From assembly GCA_964496815.1 (NCBI GenBank), contig CAZCAO010000001.1, positions 83,198-147,197 of the forward strand: DNA of 64,000 nucleotides. Reading direction: 5' to 3'. Source of the DNA: an uncultured Candidatus Saccharibacteria bacterium. GTDB lineage: Bacteria; Patescibacteriota; Saccharimonadia; CAILAD01; JADZBC01. Shown here in pieces: positions 3,968-62,075 of this stretch. Position 1 is the first letter of the stretch; each line of letters opens with the position of its first letter. The notes beneath the pieces are model-generated. The model worked only from the letters and a program-made list of their open reading frames with translations. It was not told where the DNA came from and ran no database searches. Made by a program: the position numbers and the translations under genes.

Positions 3968-5049
3968 TGGTACTGACAATTCTATTTGTCCTTTTGACCT
4001 TCTCAGTACTTGTAATCGCGCATGAATTTGGCCACTTTATTGTGGCTCGGCGCAACGGTGTTCAAGTCGATGAGTTTGGCATTGGGTTCCCGCCAAAGAT
4101 CTGGGGCATGAAACGTGGCAAAACGCTCTACACAATCAACCTCCTGCCGCTCGGAGGCTTCGTTCGCCTCAAGGGCGAAGAAGGTGAATCAACCGCCAAA
4201 GACAGCTTTGGGGCACAGCGTGCCTGGGTGAAGGCCAAAATACTTTTGGCCGGCGTCACGGTTAACCTACTGATTGCCTATGTATTAATTACTACCCTGT
4301 TAATTGTAGGTATGCCACCACTCTTACCTCAAAAACTCCCAGTTGTACTCGGTATTCAGCCAGCTAGTTCCAGCAGTCAGTTAATGGTTGTGAACGTGGG
4401 GAAGAATAGTGTCGCTGCTACCGCCGGCATCAAAAGCGGAGACCGTATCATCGAGGTTAATGGAGATAAGGCCAGTACTCCAGAGGCGCTCAAGGCGAGC
4501 GTGGATAGACTCGCAGGAGATACGGCGACGATATTGATTACGCAAGGTGGTACTACTCGTACTCTTGATGTGGCGTTACCCGAGAAAACAGCAGACAAGG
4601 CGCTGTTGGGTGTTTCGACTGTGCCAGAAAGCTTGCAACGCTATCCATGGTATATCGCTCCGGTTGCTGGTGTAATGATAATTTTACAAATGATATGGGC
4701 CACGCTTGGTGCTTTTGGGGGTATGATCATTGGTCTATTTACGCGGGCAGAAGTTTCGCAAACTGTCACGGGCCCAATTGGCATAACCGCAATATTTAGT
4801 GAGGTGCTCAAATATGGCAAAAGTTACGTAATTGCCCTTATTGCCTCGGTCTCATTGTCTTTGGCAATTATTAATGCCCTGCCGCTACCGGCATTAGACG
4901 GCGGTCGATTGCTCGTCGTAGTGCTACAGAGATTCGGGCTTAAGATTACTGATCGAACCGAGGCCATCATTCATATGCTAGGCTTCGTAGCGTTAATCGG
5001 ATTGATGATTATCGTGTCAGCCGCTGACATTATTCGACTCAGCCGCTAG
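3967..5049 (+). CDS. rseP: site-2 (M50) zinc metalloprotease RseP family
   Basis: HEFGH zinc motif in TM1, a central PDZ-like segment, and NALPLPALDGG near the C-terminus. Confidence 0.88.
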   Translation: MVLTILFVLLTFSVLVIAHEFGHFIVARRNGVQVDEFGIGFPPKIWGMKRGKTLYTINLLPLGGFVRLKGEEGESTAKDSFGAQRAWVKAKILLAGVTVNLLIAYVLITTLLIVGMPPLLPQKLPVVLGIQPASSSSQLMVVNVGKNSVAATAGIKSGDRIIEVNGDKASTPEALKASVDRLAGDTATILITQGGTTRTLDVALPEKTADKALLGVSTVPESLQRYPWYIAPVAGVMIILQMIWATLGAFGGMIIGLFTRAEVSQTVTGPIGITAIFSEVLKYGKSYVIALIASVSLSLAIINALPLPALDGGRLLVVVLQRFGLKITDRTEAIIHMLGFVALIGLMIIVSAADIIRLSR

Positions 5050-15970: not shown

Positions 15971-18148
15971 ATGCCGGCCGAAAGCGGACCTTCGTCATCT
16001 TCAACTGAAACGGGCAAAAGCCCAGTCATTTCAACTCCAGATCTAAAATCAACTGCCGATCGTGGAATTTCAAAAACAGAATCAGGTTTGTTTGTGGTCA
16101 AAGAAGACCCTACGAATGTTGATCCAAAAGACAGTGCACTATCGGCGGCGCGCGGCGTTGGCATGAGTGAGAAAGGCCTTGGTTCGATTAAATACCCTGA
16201 TAAGTTGAGTGCCGAAGAGCAGAAAGAAAAACAGATAGAAGAAGGTCCGACCGACTGGATTGATTGGAATGATCGGCGCGTAAAGGGTGGCGGCAGCGGT
16301 AATAATAATGGCGGCGGCAATATCCCTTCTGGCGAAGGTGGTAATAACAGCAATGGCGGTCGTACTTCTGGCGGCGAAGTCGTTATAGATGACGGCGGTA
16401 TTGATAATGGTGGTCCTACGCCAGGTGGTGAAGGTGGTGGTGACAATAGTAATGGTGGCGGCAACACTCCTGGCGGCGAGGGCGGTGGTGACAATGGCGA
16501 CGGCGGTACCCCAGGTGGCGAGATTGTCATAGATGACGGCGGTATTGACGGCGACGGCGGTACCCCAGGTGGCGAAGGTGGTGGCAACACTCCTGGCGGC
16601 GAAGGCGGTGGCCCCGAAGACCCAGAGGGTCCTCCTGTTTACGGCCCCGGCGTAGGGGATGCCTATGATCCAGCCGGCGGCGATCCAACTCCTCCAGTAC
16701 CCCCAGCGCCTCCAGAGGACACCGATCCTGCCACCCCTGAAGGACGAGAGCCCGCTCCAGTTTATCCTGACTTTGAACAGACAAGAGCTGAGCTCGAAGA
16801 TGCAATCCAGCGTTTAGCTAAAGCCAAGGATCGAAGCGATTCTATTTTTAGTCGATTCCATAAAAAGGTGGAGGGTCGCAACGACCAGGCCGAACTTGAT
16901 GCCGCAAGCCAGCACCTCAAGGACGTCTTCGCCAAATATGTCAGTGCAATAGCAGGTGTTACGTACGAAGGTAATGCTCGAGCACGAGCTAAAATGGCAG
17001 AACTCGGAAGCACGGTCTTAAAGGACCCAAATGATCCAAGCCTCGGCTACGCCGATGGCGTCTCGCCTGATCTCATTAGGCAATACGAAGCGGCACAGAA
17101 TGCGAAGCTCGCTGCGGAACGTGATGCGACCGAAATGATTGTGCAGGAAATGGCCTCAGCTCGCTATAAGGTTGACCAGGCTCAACTAGAGATCAAAAAA
17201 CAGAAACCAGGTGGCAAATTTATATCTAAATTCCGTGAACTCTGGACGAAGCATCCAGTCATTAAGTCTGCAATTGGTTGGGGCTTAATGGGCGCCGGTG
17301 CAGTCGCAACAGCAAGTGGTGCTGCGCCATTGGCGATTGGCTTTTTTGCAGCCCGTAAGGCGCTTGGAACGGTAGGTACCTATATGGGGGTCGAGGGTGC
17401 CGGACGTGCGCTAACTGGACTCAAATCTAAACGTGAAGAGGCGAAAGGAGCACGAGAAGGACTAGAAGGGCTAGATATTCCAGTGCTCCGAGATATAGCC
17501 GAGCAGCGGGCTTCACAATTTGGAACAGAAGACAAGCTGACAGGTGAAACATTTAGTGATGAGCAACGTGTGGCTATCGAGCAGTTTGTGCAGCAGCATG
17601 CTTCTGAAATATTCTTTGAACCAAATAGTCTGTTCGAAGCAGTTAGGCGTCCTGAAATCAATCCTTCGGCTGTGGTTGACTCCCTCCTGGATGATCGACT
17701 CGATAGGCTCAAACGTGATTCGCGCTGGACACGACGTAGTAAGTACTTGGCAGCAGCAGGTGCAGCAGTCGTAGGCGCAGCGTCTATTGCAGCTATAAAG
17801 GACGCGCTTGATGCTCGTCCGCCTGTACCACGGCCAGCTGGCGAACCAACTTCGAAGCAACTTGATAATGCATTCTTCCAGGGCATTGCCGACCACCACG
17901 GGCCTAGTACTCGTGCAGACTGGGCGGCACTCCAGCAGGCTGGACCTGGCAAAGCTAAGCTTTTGTGGGAGGCAAATCCGAGTCATGAAATGGTTGGTAA
18001 GGCCTTTGCCGATGGTGCCTGGAGAGATCAATTGGTTGGCTTATCCGCTAAGGACCAATTGACCGCAGCACGGTTGTTTGGACAGCAGTTTGATGCAGGT
18101 ACGTTCTCAGAACAATCAGCTGCAACTATTGTTGATGCATTAAAATAA
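15971..18148 (+). CDS. large hypothetical protein with Gly/Asn/Pro-rich repeat array, coiled-coil region and hydrophobic segments
   Basis: ATG 15971 follows aagggtg. GGxTPGGEGGG repeats, then a Pro-rich linker, helical region and two Ala/Gly-rich hydrophobic stretches. No signal peptide seen. Confidence 0.7.
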   Translation: MPAESGPSSSSTETGKSPVISTPDLKSTADRGISKTESGLFVVKEDPTNVDPKDSALSAARGVGMSEKGLGSIKYPDKLSAEEQKEKQIEEGPTDWIDWNDRRVKGGGSGNNNGGGNIPSGEGGNNSNGGRTSGGEVVIDDGGIDNGGPTPGGEGGGDNSNGGGNTPGGEGGGDNGDGGTPGGEIVIDDGGIDGDGGTPGGEGGGNTPGGEGGGPEDPEGPPVYGPGVGDAYDPAGGDPTPPVPPAPPEDTDPATPEGREPAPVYPDFEQTRAELEDAIQRLAKAKDRSDSIFSRFHKKVEGRNDQAELDAASQHLKDVFAKYVSAIAGVTYEGNARARAKMAELGSTVLKDPNDPSLGYADGVSPDLIRQYEAAQNAKLAAERDATEMIVQEMASARYKVDQAQLEIKKQKPGGKFISKFRELWTKHPVIKSAIGWGLMGAGAVATASGAAPLAIGFFAARKALGTVGTYMGVEGAGRALTGLKSKREEAKGAREGLEGLDIPVLRDIAEQRASQFGTEDKLTGETFSDEQRVAIEQFVQQHASEIFFEPNSLFEAVRRPEINPSAVVDSLLDDRLDRLKRDSRWTRRSKYLAAAGAAVVGAASIAAIKDALDARPPVPRPAGEPTSKQLDNAFFQGIADHHGPSTRADWAALQQAGPGKAKLLWEANPSHEMVGKAFADGAWRDQLVGLSAKDQLTAARLFGQQFDAGTFSEQSAATIVDALK
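16285..16612 (+). repeat. in-frame tandem repeat array encoding Gly-rich repeats
   Basis: atagatgacggcggtattga occurs at 16385-16404 and 16529-16548 (144-nt period). Shorter ggtggcga(a/g)ggtggtgg units recur throughout. Confidence 0.8.
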
Positions 18149-18713: not shown

Positions 18714-18928
18714 GTAGATCTACCTGGGTTCTGAGGTGGGATTCTGCATGCGTGATATCTGCCGCCCAGGTTGATCGTATGCAGGCTTCCACCCCAGACG
18801 AGGTGGACTACAGACAACCCTGGCGAACCGCCCAGGCCCTGTAGTGCCAAGACAACCAAGCATTCCTGCTTGGCCCTTGGTGCCCCGTCTGGGGCAACGA
18901 CAGCCCTGTGGGGCGGAAAGGGGCAATC

Positions 18929-19651
18929 ATGCCCATGACACCCGAAGAAAAGGCTGAGTTCGAACGTCAGCAAGCTGTGCAGAGCTGGCTGACGGACGAG
19001 CACGCTCGGACCCGCCGCGGCCTGACCGGCATCGGCCGTCGCACCGCCGGTCTGGAGCGCCACGCTGCTGCCACGGACACCACGCTCGCCGCCGTTCGCG
19101 ACGAGCAGACCGCTTCGGCGGCCTGGCGGGCGGATGTGACCGCCTGGCAGAGCGGTGTCGACGTCTGGGGGGCCGATGCGGACGCCCGCATCACCCTGGC
19201 CCAGGAGACGGCCGACCTGGCTGGCATTCGTGCCACCCAGGCCCGTGACATGGCTGCGCTCAGCATCAACGACGCGGCCCGCGCCAACCGGCGCATCACG
19301 GCGGCCACCAGCCCCGATGGCACCTGGCTGACCGGCCTCGTCACCGTGATCGGCTGGACGGCCTTGGTGCTGTTCGGTGCCTGGATGGCATCGGGGCTCG
19401 ACAACGGTCGGCGGCAGCTGGGGGACCACCCCAGCTTCCAGCCCATCGTGATCGGGGGCTGGCTCCTCGGACTGGTGTTGATCACGGTGATCACCATCGC
19501 GTCCGTGCTCAGCAGCAGCGACAACGACGTCGCTGCCCCGGCTCCGCAGCCGCAACCGGCTCCGCAGCCGCAACCGGCTCCGCAGCCGACGCCCGCCATG
19601 GGCACCCCGGCGGTCAACCCGCCCACGCCGGCACCGGCCGGCAACCGCTGA
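18929..19651 (+). CDS. GC-rich hypothetical membrane protein (helical N-terminus, 2 TM segments, PQ-repeat tail)
   Basis: ATG 18929 follows ggaaagggg. Third positions are nearly all G/C. TM segments are WLTGLVTVIGWTALVLFGAWMA and VIGGWLLGLVLITVITIASVL. Confidence 0.65.
   Translation: MPMTPEEKAEFERQQAVQSWLTDEHARTRRGLTGIGRRTAGLERHAAATDTTLAAVRDEQTASAAWRADVTAWQSGVDVWGADADARITLAQETADLAGIRATQARDMAALSINDAARANRRITAATSPDGTWLTGLVTVIGWTALVLFGAWMASGLDNGRRQLGDHPSFQPIVIGGWLLGLVLITVITIASVLSSSDNDVAAPAPQPQPAPQPQPAPQPTPAMGTPAVNPPTPAPAGNR
19538..19589 (+). repeat. 18-nt tandem repeat ccggctccgcagccgcaa, about 2.9 copies
   Basis: Copies at 19538-19555, 19556-19573 and a partial one at 19574-19589. Encodes APQPQP repeats. 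Confidence 0.85.
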
Positions 19652-19819
19652 GCGCGCAGCTCAGCAGAAGCTTCTTGGGCCGAGAGAGCGCCAGCTCTCT
19701 CGGCCTAGGGGCAACACAAGTACCTACACTTTGTGATAACTGCATTATCGTGAGCCCATAGGCCTCTCGCGATAAGTTGTTGTTCCAAAGGCCTCGAAGA
19801 CTCCTGAGAGGAGTTTGAC

Positions 19820-20809
19820 ATGAATGCATCGAGAAGGCTCCTCTTCGGGAGCTTGAGCGCGGTCTTCGCGATCGTGGGTGGGCTGCTGCTTCTGCTGCAG
19901 TTCACGTCGCCCGCCAAGGGTGACCCCACGCCCAACCCACCGTCTGCCGCGGAGTGCTTGCAGCAGTCGTTGCACACCTTCGCAGCCGACGCTGGCAAGA
20001 CCGCTCCGGACAACTACGGACCTCCCGTCGGTGGACCGAATCGGATCGACCTGGTGGAGCCGCAGTTCGATGACACGAACTGCAAGGACATGCTGATCCT
20101 GCAGTCGTCGCGTTGGCACCTCGCTACCGCAACGGCGCCGCGCAATGCGGCAGAGATCAACAAGCATGCTTCCTGGGCCGCAAAGGATGCCAAGCTGAGG
20201 GCCGCGGACTACGCGGACTTCCGCAGTGCGGCGTTCGGTGATAGCACCGGCAGGGACATCGTGCAGGTTCCGAAGGGAACGACGTACTGGACGCTTGCGG
20301 CCAAGAACGTCGGCGGGACCTGGTCGGTCTACCAGACCCAGGTGACGCTCAGCCACACCGAGCCCATGCTGGAGGTCACGACCGCGAACGGAGCGAAGAA
20401 GCTCTTCAAGTTGTCGTGCCACTTCCAGCCGGTCTCGCCCGAGGAGTTCCCAGGGGTTCCGGTGGGGCCGCCTCCGGGCGGACCGAGTTCACCGCCTCCG
20501 AGCGGTGGCTACACGCCCCCTCCGGGTACGACGCCTACCACCCCACAGGGCGGCAAGGTGGACAACCATCCCGTCGGAAACCCCCTCCCGGGCGGCGCCG
20601 GTGGACCCCAGGCGGGGAACACCGACACCACTCCGGACACGGAGGACCCCGATGGCACCCATCACGGGTCCAGTGGGTCCACGGGGTGTCACGGTGGGTG
20701 CACGGGAGGAACCCCAACCACGACCCGGCCGGTTCCGCCGAGCACGGTCGAGACCACACCGGTGACGGTTCCGGCCCCCACGGCGTCCACCACGGTCCCC
20801 GGACCGTAG
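19820..20809 (+). CDS. GC-rich secreted hypothetical protein with Pro/Thr/Gly-rich C-terminus
   Basis: RBS gagaggag. Signal-like N-terminus MNASRRLLFGSLSAVFAIVGGLLLLLQFTSPAKG. Strong GC3 bias. Confidence 0.65.
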   Translation: MNASRRLLFGSLSAVFAIVGGLLLLLQFTSPAKGDPTPNPPSAAECLQQSLHTFAADAGKTAPDNYGPPVGGPNRIDLVEPQFDDTNCKDMLILQSSRWHLATATAPRNAAEINKHASWAAKDAKLRAADYADFRSAAFGDSTGRDIVQVPKGTTYWTLAAKNVGGTWSVYQTQVTLSHTEPMLEVTTANGAKKLFKLSCHFQPVSPEEFPGVPVGPPPGGPSSPPPSGGYTPPPGTTPTTPQGGKVDNHPVGNPLPGGAGGPQAGNTDTTPDTEDPDGTHHGSSGSTGCHGGCTGGTPTTTRPVPPSTVETTPVTVPAPTASTTVPGP

Positions 20810-52442: not shown

Positions 52443-52517
52443 GGTCCCATCGTCTAGCGGTTAGGACGCCAGGTTCTCATCCTGGTAACCGGGGTTCGAT
52501 TCCCCGTGGGATCACCA
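52443..52517 (+). tRNA. tRNA-Glu (anticodon CTC), CCA encoded
   Basis: GGTCCCA-TC-GTCT-AGCGGTTA-GGAC..CCAGG-TTCTCAT-CCTGG..CGGGG-TTCGATT-CCCCG-TGGGATC-A-CCA. Confidence 0.93.
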
Positions 52518-52519
52518 AG

Positions 52520-52560
52520 CATAAGCATTATCAACGAAGACTCCGAAAGGGGTCTTTTGT
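52520..52560 (+). repeat. direct repeat DR-1 (41 nt) abutting tRNA-Glu, contains a terminator hairpin
   Basis: cataagcattatcaacgaagactccgaaaggggtcttttgt. Matches 54518-54560 with 1 mismatch and 1 indel. Confidence 0.9.
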
Positions 52561-54420: not shown

Positions 54421-54517
54421 AGAAGCTCATTTTACCCCAAAGCCTATTTCTTGTCCCCACCAACTCATCATCTCGCTGAGCAGAGTGTTCCAATTCGATA
54501 TCGTATGGTTCATCAAT

Positions 54518-54560
54518 CATAAGCATTATCAACGAAGACTCCGAAAGGAGTCTTTTTGTA
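54518..54560 (+). repeat. direct repeat DR-2 (copy of 52520-52560)
   Basis: cataagcattatcaacgaagactccgaaaggagtctttttgt. Confidence 0.9.
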
Positions 54561-55376: not shown

Positions 55377-55483
55377 AGGGCAATTATACACGAGTTTGCT
55401 GCTCAGCGTTGTGCTGATTGCTCTATCTCTTAGCGAGGTATTTCTTCGGTCATCATTTCTTAGTATTGTGATACTATCTATTC

Positions 55484-56512
55484 ATGCAAGACCCTACGCC
55501 ACGCCTGAATACCAGTTCCGAACAAAATGTCATTCCACTGGCGAACCAGGTAGAAATTCGCAATTCCTTAAGCGAACACGTTGAGTGTGTGATCGAGCCT
55601 GGCGTGACACGGTATTGGGACGAGTTTCGCGTTCATGCTGAGCCGCATACTATAGCAATAGACGGTTATGTCGAAGGGCCGATTCAGCGTGATTTGCAGC
55701 GCAAGGTTATAAATCTAAACCATCACGAACGAGTTGATCGTTCATCTACGCTTGCAACCTGTCAGCAGGCACTTTTTGAGATCCGTCGCGGCTTATTTGG
55801 CGCACTGCAGCAAGACGGTGAATTTAAGGCAAAAATATGCATGAATGATTGTGATGAAGATGTCTGCACCACAGTGTTCATCCTGCGGCACCCTGAATTC
55901 TCGGCCAAGATAGACAACCCAGCTTTGAACCGATTAGTCGAAATGGAAGGGATTATGGACGTAACCGGTGGGTTCTATCCATGGCCCCAGAGCTACCCAA
56001 GCCTGGCGGAATTCTTCTGGGTATACCAGCCATACCATGAGTTCCGTAATTCTGGCGGATTGAGCCGACAAAACCCAGACGAATATCAGGCGGTTATAGA
56101 CGCGGTGGGCGAACGAATTGAGCAGCATATTACCGGCCAAGGCGGGTCTATCGAGCTCGATACACGCTACACTAAGCTCGCGCAGCAAGGTATATGGACA
56201 ATGGTAGAAGAAACCGGTCAGCACGCAAAAGTCGGTATGTTATCAGATGGTATACAGGCATTTACGAGCGTAAGCGAACTACCGAATGGCCGATACAAAT
56301 ATAGCGTTGGCAGGCTCTCTCCCTACATTCCTTTTGACCTGAATAGCCTGTATGCTTACCTTAATGACCTCGAGGGCCTTACCGGCGAAGATTGCTGGGG
56401 TGGGGGAGACACCATTGGTGGCAGCCCACGCAATGCCGGTAGCTCTATTGCCCCGTCACAAATGGCAGAGATTGTGCAGCGTTTCATTACTCCGAATAGA
56501 CCCATGAACTAG
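55484..56512 (+). CDS. hypothetical protein (342 aa)
   Basis: Long ORF with backbone-like composition. No motif I can assign. Confidence 0.6.
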   Translation: MQDPTPRLNTSSEQNVIPLANQVEIRNSLSEHVECVIEPGVTRYWDEFRVHAEPHTIAIDGYVEGPIQRDLQRKVINLNHHERVDRSSTLATCQQALFEIRRGLFGALQQDGEFKAKICMNDCDEDVCTTVFILRHPEFSAKIDNPALNRLVEMEGIMDVTGGFYPWPQSYPSLAEFFWVYQPYHEFRNSGGLSRQNPDEYQAVIDAVGERIEQHITGQGGSIELDTRYTKLAQQGIWTMVEETGQHAKVGMLSDGIQAFTSVSELPNGRYKYSVGRLSPYIPFDLNSLYAYLNDLEGLTGEDCWGGGDTIGGSPRNAGSSIAPSQMAEIVQRFITPNRPMN

Positions 56513-56590: not shown

Positions 56591-56630
56591 AAACGAATCC
56601 CCTGGCGGAGATTCGCCAGGGGCATTACAT
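56591..56630 (+). repeat. hairpin repeat B-1
   Basis: aaacgaatcccctggcggagattcgccaggggcattacat. 37 nt identical to 57269-57305. 10-bp stem cccctggcga/tcgccagggg. Confidence 0.9.
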
Positions 56631-56667
56631 GCCTACCTATATATCGCCCCAATAGACCTATGATTGC

Positions 56668-56696
56668 TTGAATATCATACTTTTTTATGTTAATAT
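56668..56696 (+). promoter_or_regulatory. promoter TTGAAT-17-TAATAT driving the GC-rich ORF
   Basis: TTGAAT at 56668-56673, TAATAT at 56691-56696, 20 nt before ATG 56717. No SD sequence. Confidence 0.5.
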
Positions 56697-56716
56697 AATA
56701 CAGTTTAAAACCGACT

Positions 56717-57199
56717 ATGATTCTGGAAAGGATCATTTTGACCACAGCAACCACGGCGCCCCACAAGGCGCCTGAACTGTCCATCGACTACAACGCCCTC
56801 GCCCTTGGCCTGAGGGTCATCAGCTCCAGCATGAGCGCAAACAATAAGGCTGCGGCTTTTCGGATCATCACAGAGAACTTCCGAGATCAGACTTGGGGGA
56901 CTTACACGTCGGGCGTGGTCGACATCCTGCTGAAGATCCTCGCGATGATCGATTCCAACGGGGACCGGATGGTGCCTCATGCAGCGGCGCGATTCATCGT
57001 CGAAGGCATGCAGCGCAGCATGCTGGAGGTGTTGAGGGAGGCATTCGTAGCCTCCCAAGACGAGGGGCATCAGCGCAAGCTGGTCCCACATCCTGGCGTG
57101 TACGGACTCGAAGCCTTTCTGGCATGCGAACTCGGGTTCATCGTGGCGGATGCCACGTACCACTTCGACGACGAGCCTCTCGCAAGCCAGCCGGCCTAG
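56717..57199 (+). CDS. GC-rich hypothetical protein (160 aa)
   Basis: Strong GC3 bias from about codon 12 onward. The first ~36 nt have backbone-like composition. The antisense 168-aa ORF is judged spurious. Confidence 0.6.
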   Translation: MILERIILTTATTAPHKAPELSIDYNALALGLRVISSSMSANNKAAAFRIITENFRDQTWGTYTSGVVDILLKILAMIDSNGDRMVPHAAARFIVEGMQRSMLEVLREAFVASQDEGHQRKLVPHPGVYGLEAFLACELGFIVADATYHFDDEPLASQPA

Positions 57200-57231
57200 C
57201 CGGCACCACACCTCTTCGGGGGCGGGACATT

Positions 57232-57264
57232 AGCACCTGCCTGCGGGGAGGTGCTTTTGTTTTA
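57232..57264 (+). terminator. intrinsic terminator
   Basis: agcacct-(10 nt)-aggtgct followed by tttgtttt. Confidence 0.7.
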
Positions 57265-57268
57265 CAGA

Positions 57269-57308
57269 AAACGAATCCCCTGGCGGAGATTCGCCAGGGG
57301 CATTATAT
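57269..57308 (+). repeat. hairpin repeat B-2
   Basis: aaacgaatcccctggcggagattcgccaggggcattatat. Copy of 56591-56630. Confidence 0.9.
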
Positions 57309-57326
57309 ATGAACCCTTATATCAAC

Positions 57327-58019
57327 CTATCGAGCAGGAGCAGTACGGACTAGCTCCAGAATGACTGCAGCCGAAATTGCTGGATTGAGGCGGCTGAAGT
57401 TAGCTGTAGATCCGTAGTAGGTCGTGACTGCTCGCTCGGCAGCAGCTCGCTCCTTGGGGCTCGTCGTGAGCTTTCGCAGTTCGCCGATGAACTGATCGCG
57501 GTCAAAACGGATCTTGTCCATCTGATGCAAGTGGCCAGACAGAACCGCTACGAAAGCCTTGGCCTCTATAAAGCTGAAGCGCGGGAACGACGGGCAGCGT
57601 CGGAACAACAGCGCAACAGCACTCAACGCATCTGGCTGATCTTGCCAGGCCGCTTCGAGCTCATGCTGCCCCCATCCAGAGCTAACGGGCTGAATAACTG
57701 CCACGCCAGCGAGCCGAACCGGCTTCTTCTTGGCTTCAGACAACCTCGCGGCAGACCTGGAATACTCGGCTGCCTCTGTCTTGTCTGCCTGGTAGCGGCT
57801 GACCGCTCTGGCAGCGTCTCCATAGCTGTAATAGGGCACTCCTGGCCTCGAATCACCTGGCGGGTAGACTGCATCTACGCCGTACTTCCACATGACCTTG
57901 CGAACTTGCGTGGCTTTCTTGTGACCAAGCATCTCAGCAATCTGAGTAAGTGTTGCGAGCGGAGGCTCTTGCTGTGCAGCCCACTCACGGCGGGACTGTT
58001 CTACTGCATCTGCCGTCAT
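57327..58019 (-). CDS. hypothetical protein with N-terminal HTH-like segment
   Basis: ATG 58019 follows ggag. LATLTQIAEMLGHKKATQVRKV looks like a helix-turn-helix. Moderately GC-rich. Confidence 0.55.
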   Translation of the reverse strand: MTADAVEQSRREWAAQQEPPLATLTQIAEMLGHKKATQVRKVMWKYGVDAVYPPGDSRPGVPYYSYGDAARAVSRYQADKTEAAEYSRSAARLSEAKKKPVRLAGVAVIQPVSSGWGQHELEAAWQDQPDALSAVALLFRRCPSFPRFSFIEAKAFVAVLSGHLHQMDKIRFDRDQFIGELRKLTTSPKERAAAERAVTTYYGSTANFSRLNPAISAAVILELVRTAPAR

Positions 58020-58134
58020 GACGGGCTCCAATATTGTCGGGTACAAGTAGTTTGAGTATATCGCTTCAGATATTTTACACAACCATAAGCTTTTATAATG
58101 GGTTATATTTCGCCGTGCCTGCTATACTAAGATC

Positions 58135-58440
58135 ATGAAGCGACGTGCGAATAGCGGAATCCTAGGAGGAATTATTTGGATCTTTGTAGCTAGTTCTGTA
58201 GCTACATTACTCCTGCGCTTCGCGTACGACCTCCATGGTCGCAGCCCAGAGGGCAAGCTCGCCACTATACTATATAGCTGGAGTAATGTATTACTCATAC
58301 CGGTAGGCTGGCTTGATCAGTACATTAGCTTGCCTAAGGCCCTGCCGAGCGGTTTTAATATCGTCATACCAATTGCTATTGGTCTGTACGTTCTGGTCGG
58401 CTGGGCGCTTTCTGCACTCATGCCTCATACGCACGATTAA
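58135..58440 (+). CDS. small membrane protein (101 aa)
   Basis: Three hydrophobic segments. TATACT (58123-58128) lies 6 nt before the ATG. Confidence 0.55.
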   Translation: MKRRANSGILGGIIWIFVASSVATLLLRFAYDLHGRSPEGKLATILYSWSNVLLIPVGWLDQYISLPKALPSGFNIVIPIAIGLYVLVGWALSALMPHTHD

Positions 58441-58485
58441 GCTATTATCAACAGAAGAACCCCCGACCTAAGCCGGGGGCCTCTG

Positions 58486-59058
58486 TCAGGGGTGTGGACC
58501 CTCTCTTTTAGCTGTTTGGTAGCGACTATGAGCATCTTGGATTTCGGTGGTGCACTCGGTAACCGCACGCTCACTGTTGCGCAGCATACGACGACAGATC
58601 AGCGTGTGCACCATGTCAATAACAATTACTAGCAGTGCAGCCAGGAACATACTGGCGACAACAACAGGCTTCATGCCATTGATGGCGCCGACAAAGCCGC
58701 AAAACACCACCACAAGCCAGATGGCCAAGCACATAGCACGAACCCGATAGATGCGTCTAGTGCACCGCACGTATGTGCTGAGTAGGTTACGCTGAGCCCT
58801 TTCGAGCGCTACGCAACCTGCCTGGACCTCCATTACGGCATTGCGTTGTGTTTGTGCCCACGCTACATGTTCAGCTGGCTCCGGGCTAGCTTGCCAAAGA
58901 GCCGACTTAAGCAAATAAGCGTTTAAGTCCGCAACGATATCATTCGCGATATCCAGCATATAACGGGTATTATCGAGCTGACTGGCATAGTGCAACTCAG
59001 CCTCAAGCTGGTCATCCGCTACCCAGAATCGAGGCAGCCTAGTCTTGCACTTAAGCAT
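58486..59058 (-). CDS. hypothetical membrane protein (190 aa)
   Basis: Soluble helical N-terminal half, then two TM segments (AIWLVVVFCGFVGAI and VVVASMFLAALLVIVI). Confidence 0.55.
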   Translation of the reverse strand: MLKCKTRLPRFWVADDQLEAELHYASQLDNTRYMLDIANDIVADLNAYLLKSALWQASPEPAEHVAWAQTQRNAVMEVQAGCVALERAQRNLLSTYVRCTRRIYRVRAMCLAIWLVVVFCGFVGAINGMKPVVVASMFLAALLVIVIDMVHTLICRRMLRNSERAVTECTTEIQDAHSRYQTAKREGPHP

Positions 59059-59127
59059 ACTGCCTCCTAGAGCAATAGTAGGTACGAAGTAAGCAGACTA
59101 TAAACTAAATACACGTAAATTACAAGG

Positions 59128-59619
59128 TTAAGTACATTTGCGTCGGGGGATAAAACGTGGCGTATTGAGCTTATAACGTGCGTAGCGAGATCCGAAGGCA
59201 GCCTCGAGCATCCGTTCTTCGCGGGCAGACTTAAATATAAACAGAGCGACGAGTGAGCCGTAGAGCGTTGCGCGAGCAATACTCGGGCGAATAATCAGTG
59301 TGCCGAGCCCCCAGAGCATAATGCCGCTATAAACCGGATGCCTTACGCGCTTGTAAAGCCCCCGTGTCAACAGCTTTGCGCCTTTGATCGGCTCGGGTAG
59401 GGCAGAGAGCGAATAGCTTCGGAGTTGCCAGAGTGCAAGCGACACCACGCCAACGCCGACAACCCTCATCATATTAGCTAGCAAAATCTGCGCCCCGCCA
59501 TCACGCCGGCCAGGGTAGTACAAGACCGCTACCATCAACACGATTTGCAAACCGATAAGTATGTAGCTGAATGTAGTCGGCTGGAGGCCGCGCCGCCCGC
59601 TGCTTTTATGCCGTTTCAT
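59128..59619 (-). CDS. isoprenylcysteine carboxyl / phospholipid methyltransferase-family membrane protein
   Basis: RHPVYSGIMLW motif and C-terminal EERMLEAAFGSRYARY. ATG 59619 lies 7 nt after TATACT. The longer ORF-track N-terminus runs through repeat C-1. Confidence 0.7.
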   Translation of the reverse strand: MKRHKSSGRRGLQPTTFSYILIGLQIVLMVAVLYYPGRRDGGAQILLANMMRVVGVGVVSLALWQLRSYSLSALPEPIKGAKLLTRGLYKRVRHPVYSGIMLWGLGTLIIRPSIARATLYGSLVALFIFKSAREERMLEAAFGSRYARYKLNTPRFIPRRKCT

Positions 59620-59650
59620 AGCCCTAAGTATAACGCTTGTGTTTAATAAA

Positions 59651-59711
59651 ATCGAGGGTACGAAAAGAGCCCCGAGAAGAGCGTTGGGGCTCTTTTCGGG
59701 GCTTGGTTGCC
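59651..59711 (+). repeat. hairpin repeat C-1
   Basis: gggtacgaaaagagccccgagaagagcgttggggctcttttcggggcttggttgcc. 54/56 identical to C-2. Stem cgaaaagagcccc/ggggctcttttcg. Confidence 0.92.
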
Positions 59712-59731
59712 CACTTGTGCTGCCGGGATGG

Positions 59732-60418
59732 CTAGCTGCGTGCTGTGTCGATGCGGAACTCGTCCACCACCACGCGCTTGCTGAACCCGGGGTCACCTGG
59801 GTATTGCACCATCACGTCGTAGACGAAGGTCAGCTTGTTGCCTTCCACCCCCTCCTCACGAAGAGCGTGTTCAGTCAGTCGCTTTTCCTTGATCTCCGAT
59901 TCTCCCCAGCTCTGTGTCTGGTAACCCCAACCGTCGATCAGGGTCTTGCTGAACCCCTCGATAGAGAAGACCTCGTCGTAGATCCGACCGTTGGTCGCCA
60001 GAAAGCCTGGCTGGTTGCCCGAATGCAGGCTGTCGTCCATCGAGTCCTGGAGGAGTCCATCGAGCCCCTGCTTGCTTCCCAGCAGCGAGATGTCAACATG
60101 GACATGTTCGATGTAAGCCACCAGGCCTTCGCCGCCCACGGTGGGCACCACGCGCGCCTGGAAGCGAATCGTCTTCGGCTTGGTGATCCGCCACGACTTG
60201 GTGTCGTAGTCGGTCGTGTAGGTCGTGACGAACTTGTACTTCTCACCAGGAACGACAGTCTCCCTGCGCAGTGCGCCTTCGCTGAGGTCGTTGCGCAAGC
60301 GCTCGAGCTTGGTGTCTGCCGGCGTAGTAGCCGATTGCTCCGAACCGGAACAGGCCACAAGGCCCAGCAAGAGCCCGGCCAAGATCAAGAGCCCGGCAAT
60401 GCGTCGCTTGGTAATCAA
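59732..60418 (-). CDS. GC-rich lipoprotein, function unknown
   Basis: Lipobox LVAC-SG after ITKRRIAGLLILAGLLLG. Strong GC3 bias. The start is TTG 60418 or ATG 60457; ATG 60457 lies only 3 nt from the -10 box. Confidence 0.7.
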   Translation of the reverse strand: MITKRRIAGLLILAGLLLGLVACSGSEQSATTPADTKLERLRNDLSEGALRRETVVPGEKYKFVTTYTTDYDTKSWRITKPKTIRFQARVVPTVGGEGLVAYIEHVHVDISLLGSKQGLDGLLQDSMDDSLHSGNQPGFLATNGRIYDEVFSIEGFSKTLIDGWGYQTQSWGESEIKEKRLTEHALREEGVEGNKLTFVYDVMVQYPGDPGFSKRVVVDEFRIDTARS

Positions 60419-60460
60419 ATTCCCATTCCTTCGTGTAGGTGCCAGAAACTGAACCATACT

Positions 60461-60489
60461 ACTATAATGAAAAAAGTATAATATGTCAA
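60461..60489 (-). promoter_or_regulatory. promoter TTGACA-17-TATAGT (minus strand)
   Basis: Plus-strand tgtcaa at 60484-60489 and actata at 60461-60466. Drives the GC-rich lipoprotein gene. Confidence 0.5.
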
Positions 60490-60505
60490 TACTAGTAATG
60501 AGAGT

Positions 60506-60564
60506 ATCGGGTACAAAAAGAGCCCCGAGAAGAGCGTTGGGGCTCTTTTCGGGGCTTGATTGCC
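60506..60564 (+). repeat. hairpin repeat C-2
   Basis: atcgggtacaaaaagagccccgagaagagcgttggggctcttttcggggcttgattgcc. Confidence 0.92.
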
Positions 60565-60571
60565 TCCAGCC

Positions 60572-60673
60572 CTACAGGCGTGCTCGGAGCACGCCTACGA
60601 GGACCAAGATGGTGACGACCACGAGGGCCGTCGCCAAGATGTTTAGGGTCCTCTCGGACAGCCGGATAGGCAC
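60572..60673 (-). CDS. 33-aa hydrophobic peptide (second gene of the pair)
   Basis: GTG start 6 nt after AGGAGG. Sequence (M)PIRLSERTLNILATALVVVTILVLVGVLRARL. GC3-rich. The stop is embedded in the hairpin aggcgtgct/agcacgcct. Confidence 0.5.
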   Translation of the reverse strand: MPIRLSERTLNILATALVVVTILVLVGVLRARL

Positions 60674-60687
60674 CTTTGACCTCCTGG

Positions 60688-60789
60688 TCACTTGAGCATC
60701 TTCGCGAAGAAGACGACGTTGGCGACGACGATCGCCGCATGGGCCACTCCCATCGAGTGGGAGTGGATGAACATGTTGATGCGTTGCAT
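60688..60789 (-). CDS. 33-aa hydrophobic His-containing peptide (first gene of the pair)
   Basis: ATG follows aaaaaaggggg. Sequence MQRINMFIHSHSMGVAHAAIVVANVVFFAKMLK. GC3-rich. 14-nt gap to the next start. Confidence 0.5.
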   Translation of the reverse strand: MQRINMFIHSHSMGVAHAAIVVANVVFFAKMLK

Positions 60790-60941
60790 GCGCACCCCCT
60801 TTTTTCGTATCTATGCGATCAGGTAGAGTGTCGACTGTGGTAACGAGGATGTGATCGGAATCCCGATCGTACACACTCTATACCTTAGTCATCACAAGCT
60901 GCCGTCCTGCACATGACGTACTGTCCAAAACGAACCTGAAC

Positions 60942-60970
60942 ATATTAACATAAAGCATAAGCTTTGTCAA
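60942..60970 (-). promoter_or_regulatory. promoter TTGACA-17-TAATAT (minus strand)
   Basis: Plus-strand tgtcaa at 60965-60970 and atatta at 60942-60947. Followed by a ~145-nt leader before ATG 60789. Confidence 0.5.
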
Positions 60971-60988
60971 TGCTCAGCGAACAGCGAC

Positions 60989-61375
60989 TTAAGCTTTGAT
61001 ATCAATGAGTTCAATGTCGAAAACCAGATCAGAATTTGGGGGAATGTTATGACTGGGGGAGCTAGTACCGTAGGCCTGAGCAGCAGGAATAATTAGCCGG
61101 CGAGTACCACCAATCTTCATGCCGGGTACGCCTTCGGTCCAACCGGCTATTACTTGGTGTAGGCCAAACGTGGCAGGATTACCAAAGTCATGGGAACTCT
61201 GAAAAATCGTGCCGTCTTTGGCCAATGCCCCGGTATAGTGAGCGGTTATTGTCGCACCCTTTGGCACTTCGGCGCCATTGCCAACCCGCAAGTCAATGCT
61301 TTCTAGCATGGCTACCTTAGCAACTGGAGTAAAGTCTTTTAGTTTTTTTCCTTCGAGCGGTTTTGATGTATTCAT
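60989..61375 (-). CDS. FKBP-type peptidyl-prolyl cis-trans isomerase
   Basis: ITAHYTGALAKDGTIFQSSHD and VIAGWTEGVPGMKIGGTRRLIIP motifs. TATAAT lies 6 nt upstream of the ATG. Confidence 0.88.
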   Translation of the reverse strand: MNTSKPLEGKKLKDFTPVAKVAMLESIDLRVGNGAEVPKGATITAHYTGALAKDGTIFQSSHDFGNPATFGLHQVIAGWTEGVPGMKIGGTRRLIIPAAQAYGTSSPSHNIPPNSDLVFDIELIDIKA

Positions 61376-61391
61376 AGAGTGATTATAGCAG

Positions 61392-61445
61392 AAACGAATG
61401 AGAGCCCCGAGGGGAGCAAGGGGCTCTCATTCGGGGCTCTTGGCA
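61392..61445 (+). repeat. hairpin repeat C-3 (diverged copy of C-1/C-2)
   Basis: aaacgaatgagagccccgaggggagcaaggggctctcattcggggctcttgg. 14-bp stem 61395-61408/61420-61433. Same gagccccgag..ggggctc..tcggggct skeleton. Confidence 0.8.
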
Positions 61446-61457
61446 GAACCTGCTGGA

Positions 61458-61997
61458 CTAGTCGATGACGACGAGGTCCACGTAGACGTAGCAGTTGCGG
61501 ATCTCGCCATCCGTCTTGCTGTGGACCAGACCACGCTCGCCGAGACCGGGATCGCAGTGCCGGCGGTCGAGCAGGTCGTGTGCCGTGCCGTTGCCGCGCT
61601 CCGAGAGGTGATCGTCGGGAGCGATGATGTCGAGCACTGGGTGGACCAGCTGCAGGTCCTTGTCGCCCAGGTGGTAGGTACCCCGAAAGATGACGCCGTC
61701 GAACAGGCCGAGCTCGAGGTGATCGAACGACTGGTTGCGGTTGGCGTACACGGCCGTGGCCCAGAAGTCGTCGACCAGCTCGGCGGTGGCCCGATCGCAG
61801 TTGGTCTCGCAGATGATCGCCTCGATGCACTGCTGAAGCGTCGGTGTGGGCAGGGTGCCTTCGCTGATCTCGTCGTCTTCTTCGATGGCGTCGATCTCGG
61901 CGATGATCGCAGGGTCAACGCTCGGGAAGGGTTCGGTGATGTCGGGGTACGTGTCGGTTGCCGGCGGGGTGCCGGTCCGGGACATGGTATCGGTCAT
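61458..61997 (-). CDS. GC-rich acidic hypothetical protein (179 aa)
   Basis: ATG 61997 follows ggaggtgg. Nearly all third positions are G/C in this frame. Three overlapping ORFs in other frames are Arg/Pro-rich and look spurious. Confidence 0.6.
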   Translation of the reverse strand: MTDTMSRTGTPPATDTYPDITEPFPSVDPAIIAEIDAIEEDDEISEGTLPTPTLQQCIEAIICETNCDRATAELVDDFWATAVYANRNQSFDHLELGLFDGVIFRGTYHLGDKDLQLVHPVLDIIAPDDHLSERGNGTAHDLLDRRHCDPGLGERGLVHSKTDGEIRNCYVYVDLVVID

Positions 61998-62047
61998 GGC
62001 CTCAGCCACCTCCGTGTTAGCCTGCATCGAATAGCAGGGTTGGGTTC

Positions 62048-62075
62048 AGTATACGCCCATAACCACTATGGTCAA
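62048..62075 (-). promoter_or_regulatory. promoter TTGACC-16-TATACT (minus strand)
   Basis: Plus-strand ggtcaa at 62070-62075 and agtata at 62048-62053. Drives the GC-rich acidic ORF. Confidence 0.45.

Follow-up and report, generated by a model that had tools for sequence, protein, structure and literature searches.

The element described here is a candidate bicistronic cassette on the minus strand of a 64-kb stretch of chromosome from an uncultured Saccharibacteria bacterium; this whole stretch is called the window below, and all coordinates are positions in it. The cassette opens with a match to a sigma-70-type promoter (TTGACA-17-TAATAT, 60970-60942), which agrees with the consensus at 10 of 12 positions and has an extended −10 TG. 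The predicted transcription start near 60935 is followed by a 5′ leader of ~146 nt (60935-60790; G+C, 0.42 to 0.56), and then by two open reading frames (ORFs) of 102 nt each, stop codon included. The first ORF, pep1 (60789-60688), has an ATG start and 33 codons plus TGA, and its product is MQRINMFIHSHSMGVAHAAIVVANVVFFAKMLK. Its Shine-Dalgarno (SD) sequence, AAGGGGGT (60801-60794), is one G-for-A exchange away from AAGGAGGT and ends 4 nt from the ATG, with a GGGGG located 5 nt 5′ of the start codon. The second ORF, pep2 (60673-60572), starts with GTG and has 33 codons plus TAG, giving (M)PIRLSERTLNILATALVVVTILVLVGVLRARL; a gap of 14 nt separates it from pep1, and within this gap, 6 nt ahead of the GTG, lies a perfect AGGAGG (60685-60680). 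The unit is closed by an intrinsic terminator (60556-60512), a GC-rich stem of 14 to 15 bp followed by TCTTTTTGT, whose repeat unit spans 60556-60516. A preliminary description of this DNA had proposed the same order of promoter, leader, two ORFs, and closing hairpin repeat, and closer inspection of the sequence revealed the promoter, both 102-nt frames, the GTG behind its AGGAGG, the gap, and the terminator all in place.

Each ORF also contains a perfect inverted repeat. In pep1, a 9-bp hairpin (60766-60744, minus strand) covers the codons for H-S-H-S-M-G-V, with 0.01 such hairpins expected per window, and in pep2, a 10-bp inverted repeat (60596-60576, minus strand) covers the final codons just ahead of the terminator. 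These structures may contribute to mRNA stability or may be a trace of the origin of the segment. Upstream of the cassette, on the same strand, lies the core gene for an FKBP-type peptidyl-prolyl isomerase (61375-60989; PF00254, 1.9e-26). FKBP has no terminator of its own in this genome, and therefore, read-through from FKBP into the cassette is possible. A motif, AAAGCTTA(T/A)G, is found at the FKBP stop codon and in the spacer of the cassette promoter (60953-60995) as well as at a third, intergenic site (58081-58100), and ATTGATATCAAAGCTTA at the end of FKBP is similar to ATTGACAAAGCTTA of the promoter. The repeated motif may be a short duplication left behind when the cassette inserted.

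The coding signal follows the boundaries of the two ORFs. The G+C contents of the first, second, and third codon positions (GC1/2/3) are 0.50/0.29/0.88 for pep1 and 0.65/0.38/0.85 for pep2, compared to a GC3 of 0.43, 0.57, and 0.60 for the neighboring core genes encoding FKBP, a DUF2779 protein, and an ICMT-like protein, respectively. When codon-position G+C was followed in sliding windows of 36 nt, the leader was without periodicity, and a strong GC3 signal (0.83 to 1.00 in one phase) began at the ATG of pep1, shifted phase at the ORF junction as the frame offset of pep2 predicts, and faded at the pep2 stop codon. The G/C-rich third positions of the two short frames, as noted in the preliminary description, are thus borne out, together with a phase switch at the junction. 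With a codon model that had the remaining GC-rich genes of the window as its training set, pep1 reached a log-likelihood ratio (LLR) of +14.3 bits, and none of 5,000 shuffles was as good. Furthermore, both strands of the 64 kb were scanned for ORFs of 25 to 60 codons that have at least 5 of 6 matches to AGGAGG 4 to 10 nt upstream and a transmembrane (TM)-like core. The output consisted of pep1, pep2, and two out-of-frame matches in a Gly-rich repeat gene, at a chance level of 0.35 ± 0.63 (composition-preserving shuffles). Hence, pep1 and pep2 are the sole in-frame small ORFs of the window that combine an SD sequence with a TM-like core, and the pair exceeds chance. pep1 has already been called as a 33-aa protein in NCBI/ENA; pep2 and the alternative ORFs have not been called. 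Three contigs, derived from at least two samples, carry the cassette with 100% identity over the region, and this speaks against an assembly error.

The predicted product of pep1 has a polar, His/Ser-containing N-terminal part followed by a moderately hydrophobic helix with His and Asn. The predicted product of pep2 has a strongly hydrophobic core of 20 residues that is flanked by Arg and resembles a classical single-pass TM segment. Consistent with the single TM-like core per peptide that had been read from the sequence before, the Kyte-Doolittle maxima (17-residue) are 2.05 for pep1 and 3.01 for pep2, and by direct count, 12 of 15 residues are I, V, L, F, C, M, or A both in GVAHAAIVVANVVFF of pep1 and in LATALVVVTILVLVG of pep2. 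The C termini, AKMLK and RARL, each have two basic residues in their last 4 to 5 positions and no aromatic or charged cluster. Small-xxx-small motifs are present in both peptides (G14xxxA18 and A19xxxA23 in pep1; G27xxxA31 in pep2). The two peptides did not align with each other at E ≤ 100, which rules them out as paralogues or tandem duplicates.

The leader shows no more than a moderate degree of structure (z = −2.29; 4 of 200 shuffles were equally good). Its minimum free energy (MFE) structure (−52.4 kcal/mol) is an imperfect rod around a perfect 6-bp hairpin, GATCGG-gatt-CCGATC (60868-60853, minus strand), which is central to the MFE structure and to the constrained structure alike. The preliminary description had placed this hairpin inside an 8-bp stem, and this holds in part: the arms of the stem, TAGAGTGT and ACACTCTA (60880-60873 and 60831-60824, minus strand), exist and the perfect hairpin is nested between them, but the stem itself is absent from the MFE structure, and imposing it gave −41.4 kcal/mol, i.e., a fold worse by 11 kcal/mol. 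With the leader folded alone, the 3′ arm of the 8-bp stem pairs with the GGGGGUG of the pep1 SD sequence; in the full-length fold, about half of this SD sequence is unpaired and the AUG is free. A switch in the leader that would act on the pep1 SD sequence is conceivable but unsupported. No Rfam family matched the leader (the best match was rsmX, with an E value of 3 and on the opposite strand), and no homologue of it was found by tblastn and blastn against 37 comparison loci or with a 22-nt leader core in JGI metagenomes.

Homology searches did not retrieve a relative of either peptide. An exhaustive phmmer search of pep1 against 1.84e9 representative proteins found pep1 alone, and the concatenated peptides had no match in a word-indexed search of 5.8e9 proteins. 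Neither Pfam and NCBIfam (E ≤ 10) nor PHROG gave a match, tblastn against plasmids and phages found no homologue, tblastn and blastn found no relatives in the 37 comparison loci, and no similar tandem small ORFs are present in 382 kb of related loci. Two tblastn matches of pep2, in L003 and L027, are noise; one is out-of-frame and the other falls on a TM segment in an unrelated protein. Back-translated exact 8-residue patterns likewise had no match in JGI metagenomes and IMG/VR. Hence, both peptides and the leader were seen only in the three identical contigs of one population, and conservation of the small frames, a check suggested in the preliminary description, was not found outside this population in any collection searched. 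Genes of 33 codons are frequently missed by gene calling. For unannotated DNA, tblastn was run on phages, plasmids, and the comparison loci, and exact 8-residue patterns served for the large contig collections; since these searches used either exact patterns or small collections, homologues in actinobacterial genomes are possible.

The genomic surroundings of the cassette were compared across related genomes. The DUF2779 gene beside it retrieves metagenome-assembled genomes of Saccharibacteria/Patescibacteria, and the flanks consist of housekeeping genes whose order is conserved in related Saccharibacteria (RNR, HIT, FKBP, DUF2779, NTPase, and S-adenosylmethionine synthetase). The closest species representatives, L003 and L004, share with the window 89% identity in DUF2779 and 85 to 87% in FKBP; HIT is 94% identical (L003 only). 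In L003, FKBP (85% identical) is followed by ~85 nt that hold a terminator and a promoter and then directly by the ICMT-like gene, with no cassette between them. The same site is occupied in L004 by a different GC-rich gene of 120 aa on the opposite strand, and in the window by two extra units between the FKBP and ICMT/PEMT-like genes, the peptide cassette and a second cassette, that of the gene g241. Thus, the genes that bracket the two units are direct neighbors in a related genome. Between the anchors HIT (94%) and FKBP/DUF2779 (85 to 89%), the stretch from HIT to DUF2779 (56600-62050 in the window; ~1 to 6000 in L003 to L008) is hypervariable: its shared genes are 27 to 70% identical, and gene content varies by species. 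In all relatives, it contains GC3-rich genes (0.7 to 0.9, versus ~0.45 to 0.6 for core genes), and in the window, three GC3-rich genes stand in a row, each with a promoter of its own. The GC3-rich genes that fill the stretch carry individual promoters and terminators. Among the neighboring genes scanned, none was a phage structural gene or an integrase gene.

The adjoining g241 cassette (60489-59656, minus strand) is built from a promoter (TTGACA-17-TATAGT, 60489-60461), a GC3-rich, lipoprotein-like gene with the lipobox LVAC (60457/60418-59732), and a terminator (59711-59656). The gene has 25 homologues. Part of them are in Saccharibacteria-like chromosomal contexts with different neighbors (L032 to L034), and others, with 49 to 53% identity (L035 to L039), are on contigs of 56 to 69% G+C and up to ~96 kb that carry dense, short, co-oriented genes along with an SNF2 helicase, endonuclease VII, transglycosylases, and a DNA methyltransferase. 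The SNF2 helicase of L035 has mostly matches to phages of Gordonia, Rhodococcus, and Tsukamurella, at low identity, and g241 itself is 37% identical to a gut "Bacteriophage sp." record. This distribution suggests possible gene flow between high-GC, actinophage-like elements and Saccharibacteria. A joint transfer of the peptide cassette with g241 is ruled out, since the g241 homologues have other neighbors.

The terminator of the peptide cassette belongs to a hairpin family of the form GCCCCGA..AGAGCCCC..GCTC..TCGGGGCTCTTTTCGT that is found clade-wide 3′ of variable cassette genes. Copies in the window are located at 59656-59711, 60509-60564, and 61401-61438, and relatives carry them at L003:5404-5454, L005:1176-1226, 4039-4089, and 4672-4722, L006:5322-5372, L007:2966-3016, and L008:4694-4744. 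An alignment of 10 full-length copies, to which two further partial copies were aligned, gave a consensus fold with 4 stem pairs that show compensatory change, and two alternative stems are possible. With a T-run after it, the hairpin acts like a terminator. In L005, one copy reaches 97.6% identity over 41 nt, compared to 74% for DUF2779, the one core protein compared there, and the terminators of the peptide and g241 cassettes are 56-nt copies with 96% identity. A second repeated, terminator-like hairpin (56591-56645 and 57269-57323; 55 nt, 87%) is present on both sides of a GC-rich gene of 160 aa.

In sum, our data point toward a real, recently acquired, strain-specific bicistronic unit for two small membrane peptides, i.e., a moron-like accessory cassette, and we hold this reading to be probable, with room left for others. 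What can be read directly from the DNA are the signals and the distances between them, a GC3 periodicity that fits the frames exactly, a codon usage that deviates from that of the core neighbors, and the lack of the unit in sister species. From these we infer translation of the peptides, their insertion into the cell membrane, and a joint, accessory, and dispensable action. In our model, the strong sigma-70-type promoter would drive a bicistronic mRNA of ~420 nt, in which each 33-codon ORF, past the ~146-nt leader, would be translated from its own SD sequence. The products would be two unrelated peptides of ~3.6 kDa, each essentially a single hydrophobic helix, with pep2 as a single-pass TM segment and pep1 as a weaker helix, and the clade-typical intrinsic terminator would close the unit. 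The unit is an orphan in a cassette-rich stretch and its neighbor has phage-like relatives; therefore, we favor as a guess a conversion function at the level of the membrane, such as exclusion of phages or competitors or a toxic peptide with its partner, and consider the role of a housekeeping subunit less likely.

Several observations weigh against this interpretation. The codon LLR of pep2 is just +3.0 bits and not significant (801 of 5,000 shuffles were as good), and a plus-strand frame in the same GC3 phase scores 12.1 bits over the pep1 segment, against 14.3 bits for pep1. Since there is no homologue of pep1, pep2, or the leader, purifying selection is not demonstrable, and the searches for unannotated homologues were limited to small collections and exact 8-residue patterns. 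Furthermore, the chromosomal context is one of housekeeping genes and not that of a recognizable prophage. The last point bears on the name of the element. Phage morons are described as coding regions flanked by a promoter and a terminator, situated between genes that are adjacent in a relative, and of deviant composition (PMC4378225). As in morons, the peptide cassette has its own promoter (60970-60942) and factor-independent terminator (60556-60512), both consensus matches, sits between two genes adjacent in L003, and differs in composition from its flanks (GC3 of 0.88 and 0.85 versus 0.43 to 0.60), and its neighbor g241 has homologues in phage-like contigs. Unlike morons, it resides in a housekeeping part of a Saccharibacteria chromosome with no recognizable phage or prophage, has two ORFs behind a long leader, and ends in a terminator that is common to clade-wide chromosomal cassettes. 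Because of this residence, "moron" is only an analogy, and we therefore call the unit moron-like and not a moron.

The GC-rich 218 nt could also be a nonfunctional relic, that is, decayed or truncated imported DNA, for example, the signal anchor of a longer cassette gene, in which the periodicity of the donor is retained. We regard this as unlikely, yet worth serious consideration. The unit is missing from sister species and no conservation was found; pep2 looks like a generic N-terminal membrane anchor with a codon score that is not significant; rapid gain and loss is evident in the neighboring cassettes; and the duplicated, 96% identical 56-nt terminator shows recent recombination at the site. 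However, a relic would hardly be expected to keep two start codons, both with a near-perfect SD sequence at optimal spacing, a stop codon exactly at the change of GC3 phase, and an intact strong promoter and terminator. The last five codons of pep1 end in G or C, and the spacer with the SD sequence is without GC3 signal in either frame, which speaks against a relic as well as against a frameshifted ORF. Indeed, a single frameshifted gene with two TM segments or a programmed −1 frameshift is ruled out by the persistence of GC3 in the pep1 frame until the stop codon, the perfect SD sequence in the spacer, the lack of a slippery heptamer, and the agreement of the three assemblies.

Another explanation is a locus similar to type I toxin-antitoxin (TA) systems, in which one or both peptides would damage the membrane and be restrained by the folded leader and an antisense RNA from the plus strand. 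We judge this to be improbable. Type I toxins have been searched for as proteins of <70 aa with at least 10 of 15 residues being I, V, L, F, C, M, or A (Fozo et al., PMC2887945), and both peptides pass this rule with 12 of 15. Like Hok, Ldr/Fst, TisB, Ibs, and ShoB (PMC2887945), they combine a very small size with one TM-like helix and a short basic C terminus, and like type I loci, the unit is accessory, strain-specific, and intergenic in style, is prone to be missed in annotation, and has a long folded 5′ untranslated region, which is moderately structured and able to pair with the pep1 SD sequence when folded alone. On the plus strand, a promoter-like sequence (60439-60468) and a terminator-like stem (60780-60794) followed by CCCCCTTTTT bracket both ORFs as weak matches, and in the ORF region, the fold of the plus strand is slightly more favorable than that of the minus strand (z of −4.11 versus −3.36). 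However, in the plus-strand promoter, the −35 box is poor (GTGCCA) and the spacer measures 18 nt, this promoter is the mirror of the AT-rich g241 promoter, the stem of the "terminator" has 5 pairs only, and an antisense RNA would first have to cross the 14-bp hairpin at 60521-60556. Furthermore, no known type I toxin model in Pfam or NCBIfam was matched, and the peptides have no sequence relation to the known families. Both ORFs share one operon and have no relation to each other, in contrast to tandem copies with separate small RNAs, and their SD sequences are optimal, which is unusual for tightly silenced toxins, that of pep1 being about half unpaired with a free AUG in the full-length fold.

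Far less credible is the idea that a different frame is the real gene, although a mechanical ORF list contains all the alternative frames and the plus-strand frame has a GC3 of 0.85 to 0.91 and, for the pep1 segment, its codon LLR of 12.1 bits. Two minus-strand candidates, a 100-aa ORF (60572-60874) whose C terminus is pep2 and an 82-aa ORF (60492-60740), are ruled out by their codon-position composition and missing start signals. The N-terminal 67 codons of the former have a GC1/2/3 of 0.73/0.48/0.42 and are out of frame with the coding signal, and the latter has 0.61/0.64/0.49. The 100-aa ORF had no homologue in the word-indexed search of 5.8e9 proteins, and the suspicion that its middle is an out-of-frame translation proved justified. 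Conservation of this frame in place of the small ones had been named beforehand as the outcome that would contradict the two-peptide reading; the small frames are indeed unconserved, but so is the 100-aa frame. On the plus strand, 70-aa and 44-aa ORFs share the GC3 phase of pep1 and pep2, with a GC1 of 0.30 to 0.39 that is atypical of GC-rich genes. The 70-aa ORF starts inside the g241 promoter and continues across the terminator hairpin. In this hairpin, conservation concerns the structure, with compensatory changes, and not a coding sequence. The TTG start of the 44-aa ORF follows CCTCCT, the complement of an SD sequence. The exact sequence of none of these four ORFs occurs in a collection of 15 billion proteins. 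Equally remote is a structured noncoding RNA that encodes no peptides: the ORF region folds better than shuffles (z of about −3.4 to −3.5 for the minus strand) and has two perfect hairpins of 9 to 10 bp, but z extends from +0.4 down to −6 in other GC-rich coding stretches of the window, so that the fold is unexceptional and was dropped as evidence, a strict period-3 composition bound to the ORF edges is unexpected for an RNA gene, and Rfam gave no match, the best being rsmX on the other strand with its E value of 3.

Given two small membrane peptides, a comparison with known systems of this kind is of use. The characterized examples KdpF, CydX, AcrZ, and MgtS each have a known partner complex, with which they are encoded or on which they act. 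Unlike these, pep1 and pep2 adjoin no gene for a partner complex, and no kdp, cyd, or transporter genes are present among the genes examined at ~55.0 to 63.6 kb; hence, the option of transporter or oxidase accessory subunits raised in the preliminary description finds no counterpart among these neighbors. To our knowledge, Saccharibacteria lack most of the complexes partnered by KdpF, CydX, AcrZ, and MgtS. In their length of <50 residues, their single helix, and their absent or half-complete annotation, the peptides do resemble bacterial small membrane proteins in general (PMC10903887, PMC11539335). With class IIb or leaderless bacteriocins, they have in common adjacent genes for unrelated, small, hydrophobic or cationic peptides with small-xxx-small motifs. 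Unlike two-peptide bacteriocins, they have no double-glycine leader and no GG motif in either peptide, and the hydrophobicity of pep2 far exceeds that of secreted bacteriocin peptides. No bacteriocin-type immunity, ABC-transporter, or accessory genes are nearby, the neighbors being FKBP, the lipoprotein-like orphan, and the ICMT/PEMT-like gene. A bacteriocin locus therefore fails on its context, lacking export and immunity genes, and has no family match (Pfam/NCBIfam, E ≤ 10). An integron gene cassette is ruled out by the units' own promoters, the terminator-like hairpin with its T-run, and the absence of an integrase among the neighbors scanned.

Some further features of the window and its relatives were recorded. 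The 3′ end of tRNA-Glu(CTC) and its terminator (52443-52558) is repeated 2 kb downstream (54507-54556; 50 nt, 92%), and the repeats bracket three genes, including one for a Peptidase_S51, in the manner of att sites, with no integrase found. Sharply bounded islands of 62 to 72% G+C (genome, ~48%) are located at 18800-20800, 1-1200, and 16400-16800; two Pro-rich ORFs of 247 and 329 aa, both containing TM segments and neither matching Pfam, lie in the island at 18.8 to 20.8 kb, and the segment at 16.4 to 16.8 kb corresponds to the Gly-rich repeats of a 728-aa protein. The core genes for the ICMT-like protein, HIT, and a 342-aa protein have a −10-like box 6 to 8 nt before the ATG (59620-59650, 55391-55420, and 55460-55484) and no SD sequence, which suggests that their mRNAs may be leaderless; the cassette genes, unlike these, use strong SD sequences. 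Related Saccharibacteria have SD-led ORFs of 54 to 57 aa (L006:13009-13173 and L020:761-934) composed almost entirely of a Gly/Ala-rich stretch and an LPxTG-like motif (LPATG, LPNTG) together with a TM helix and a basic tail, and these would be minimal sortase-substrate-like peptides.

The peptides have no comparanda, and the finding itself thus opens no major question. If the peptides are made, they would add an orphan pair to the poorly charted repertoire of small membrane proteins in the Candidate Phyla Radiation (CPR), of which the present annotation catches one of two. It is a slim chance, in our view, that they represent a wholly new, membrane-active two-peptide system of a CPR epibiont, drawn from the gene pool of high-GC actinobacterial hosts and actinophages and placed in a chromosomal hot spot of moron-like cassettes. 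If this were true, a toxin with its partner or immunity peptide, or a phage-exclusion pair, would serve the interaction of the parasite with its host or its phages. The context of the cassette may matter more than the peptides themselves, and the hypervariable stretch of self-contained cassettes hints at how ultra-small epibionts gain and turn over accessory genes.

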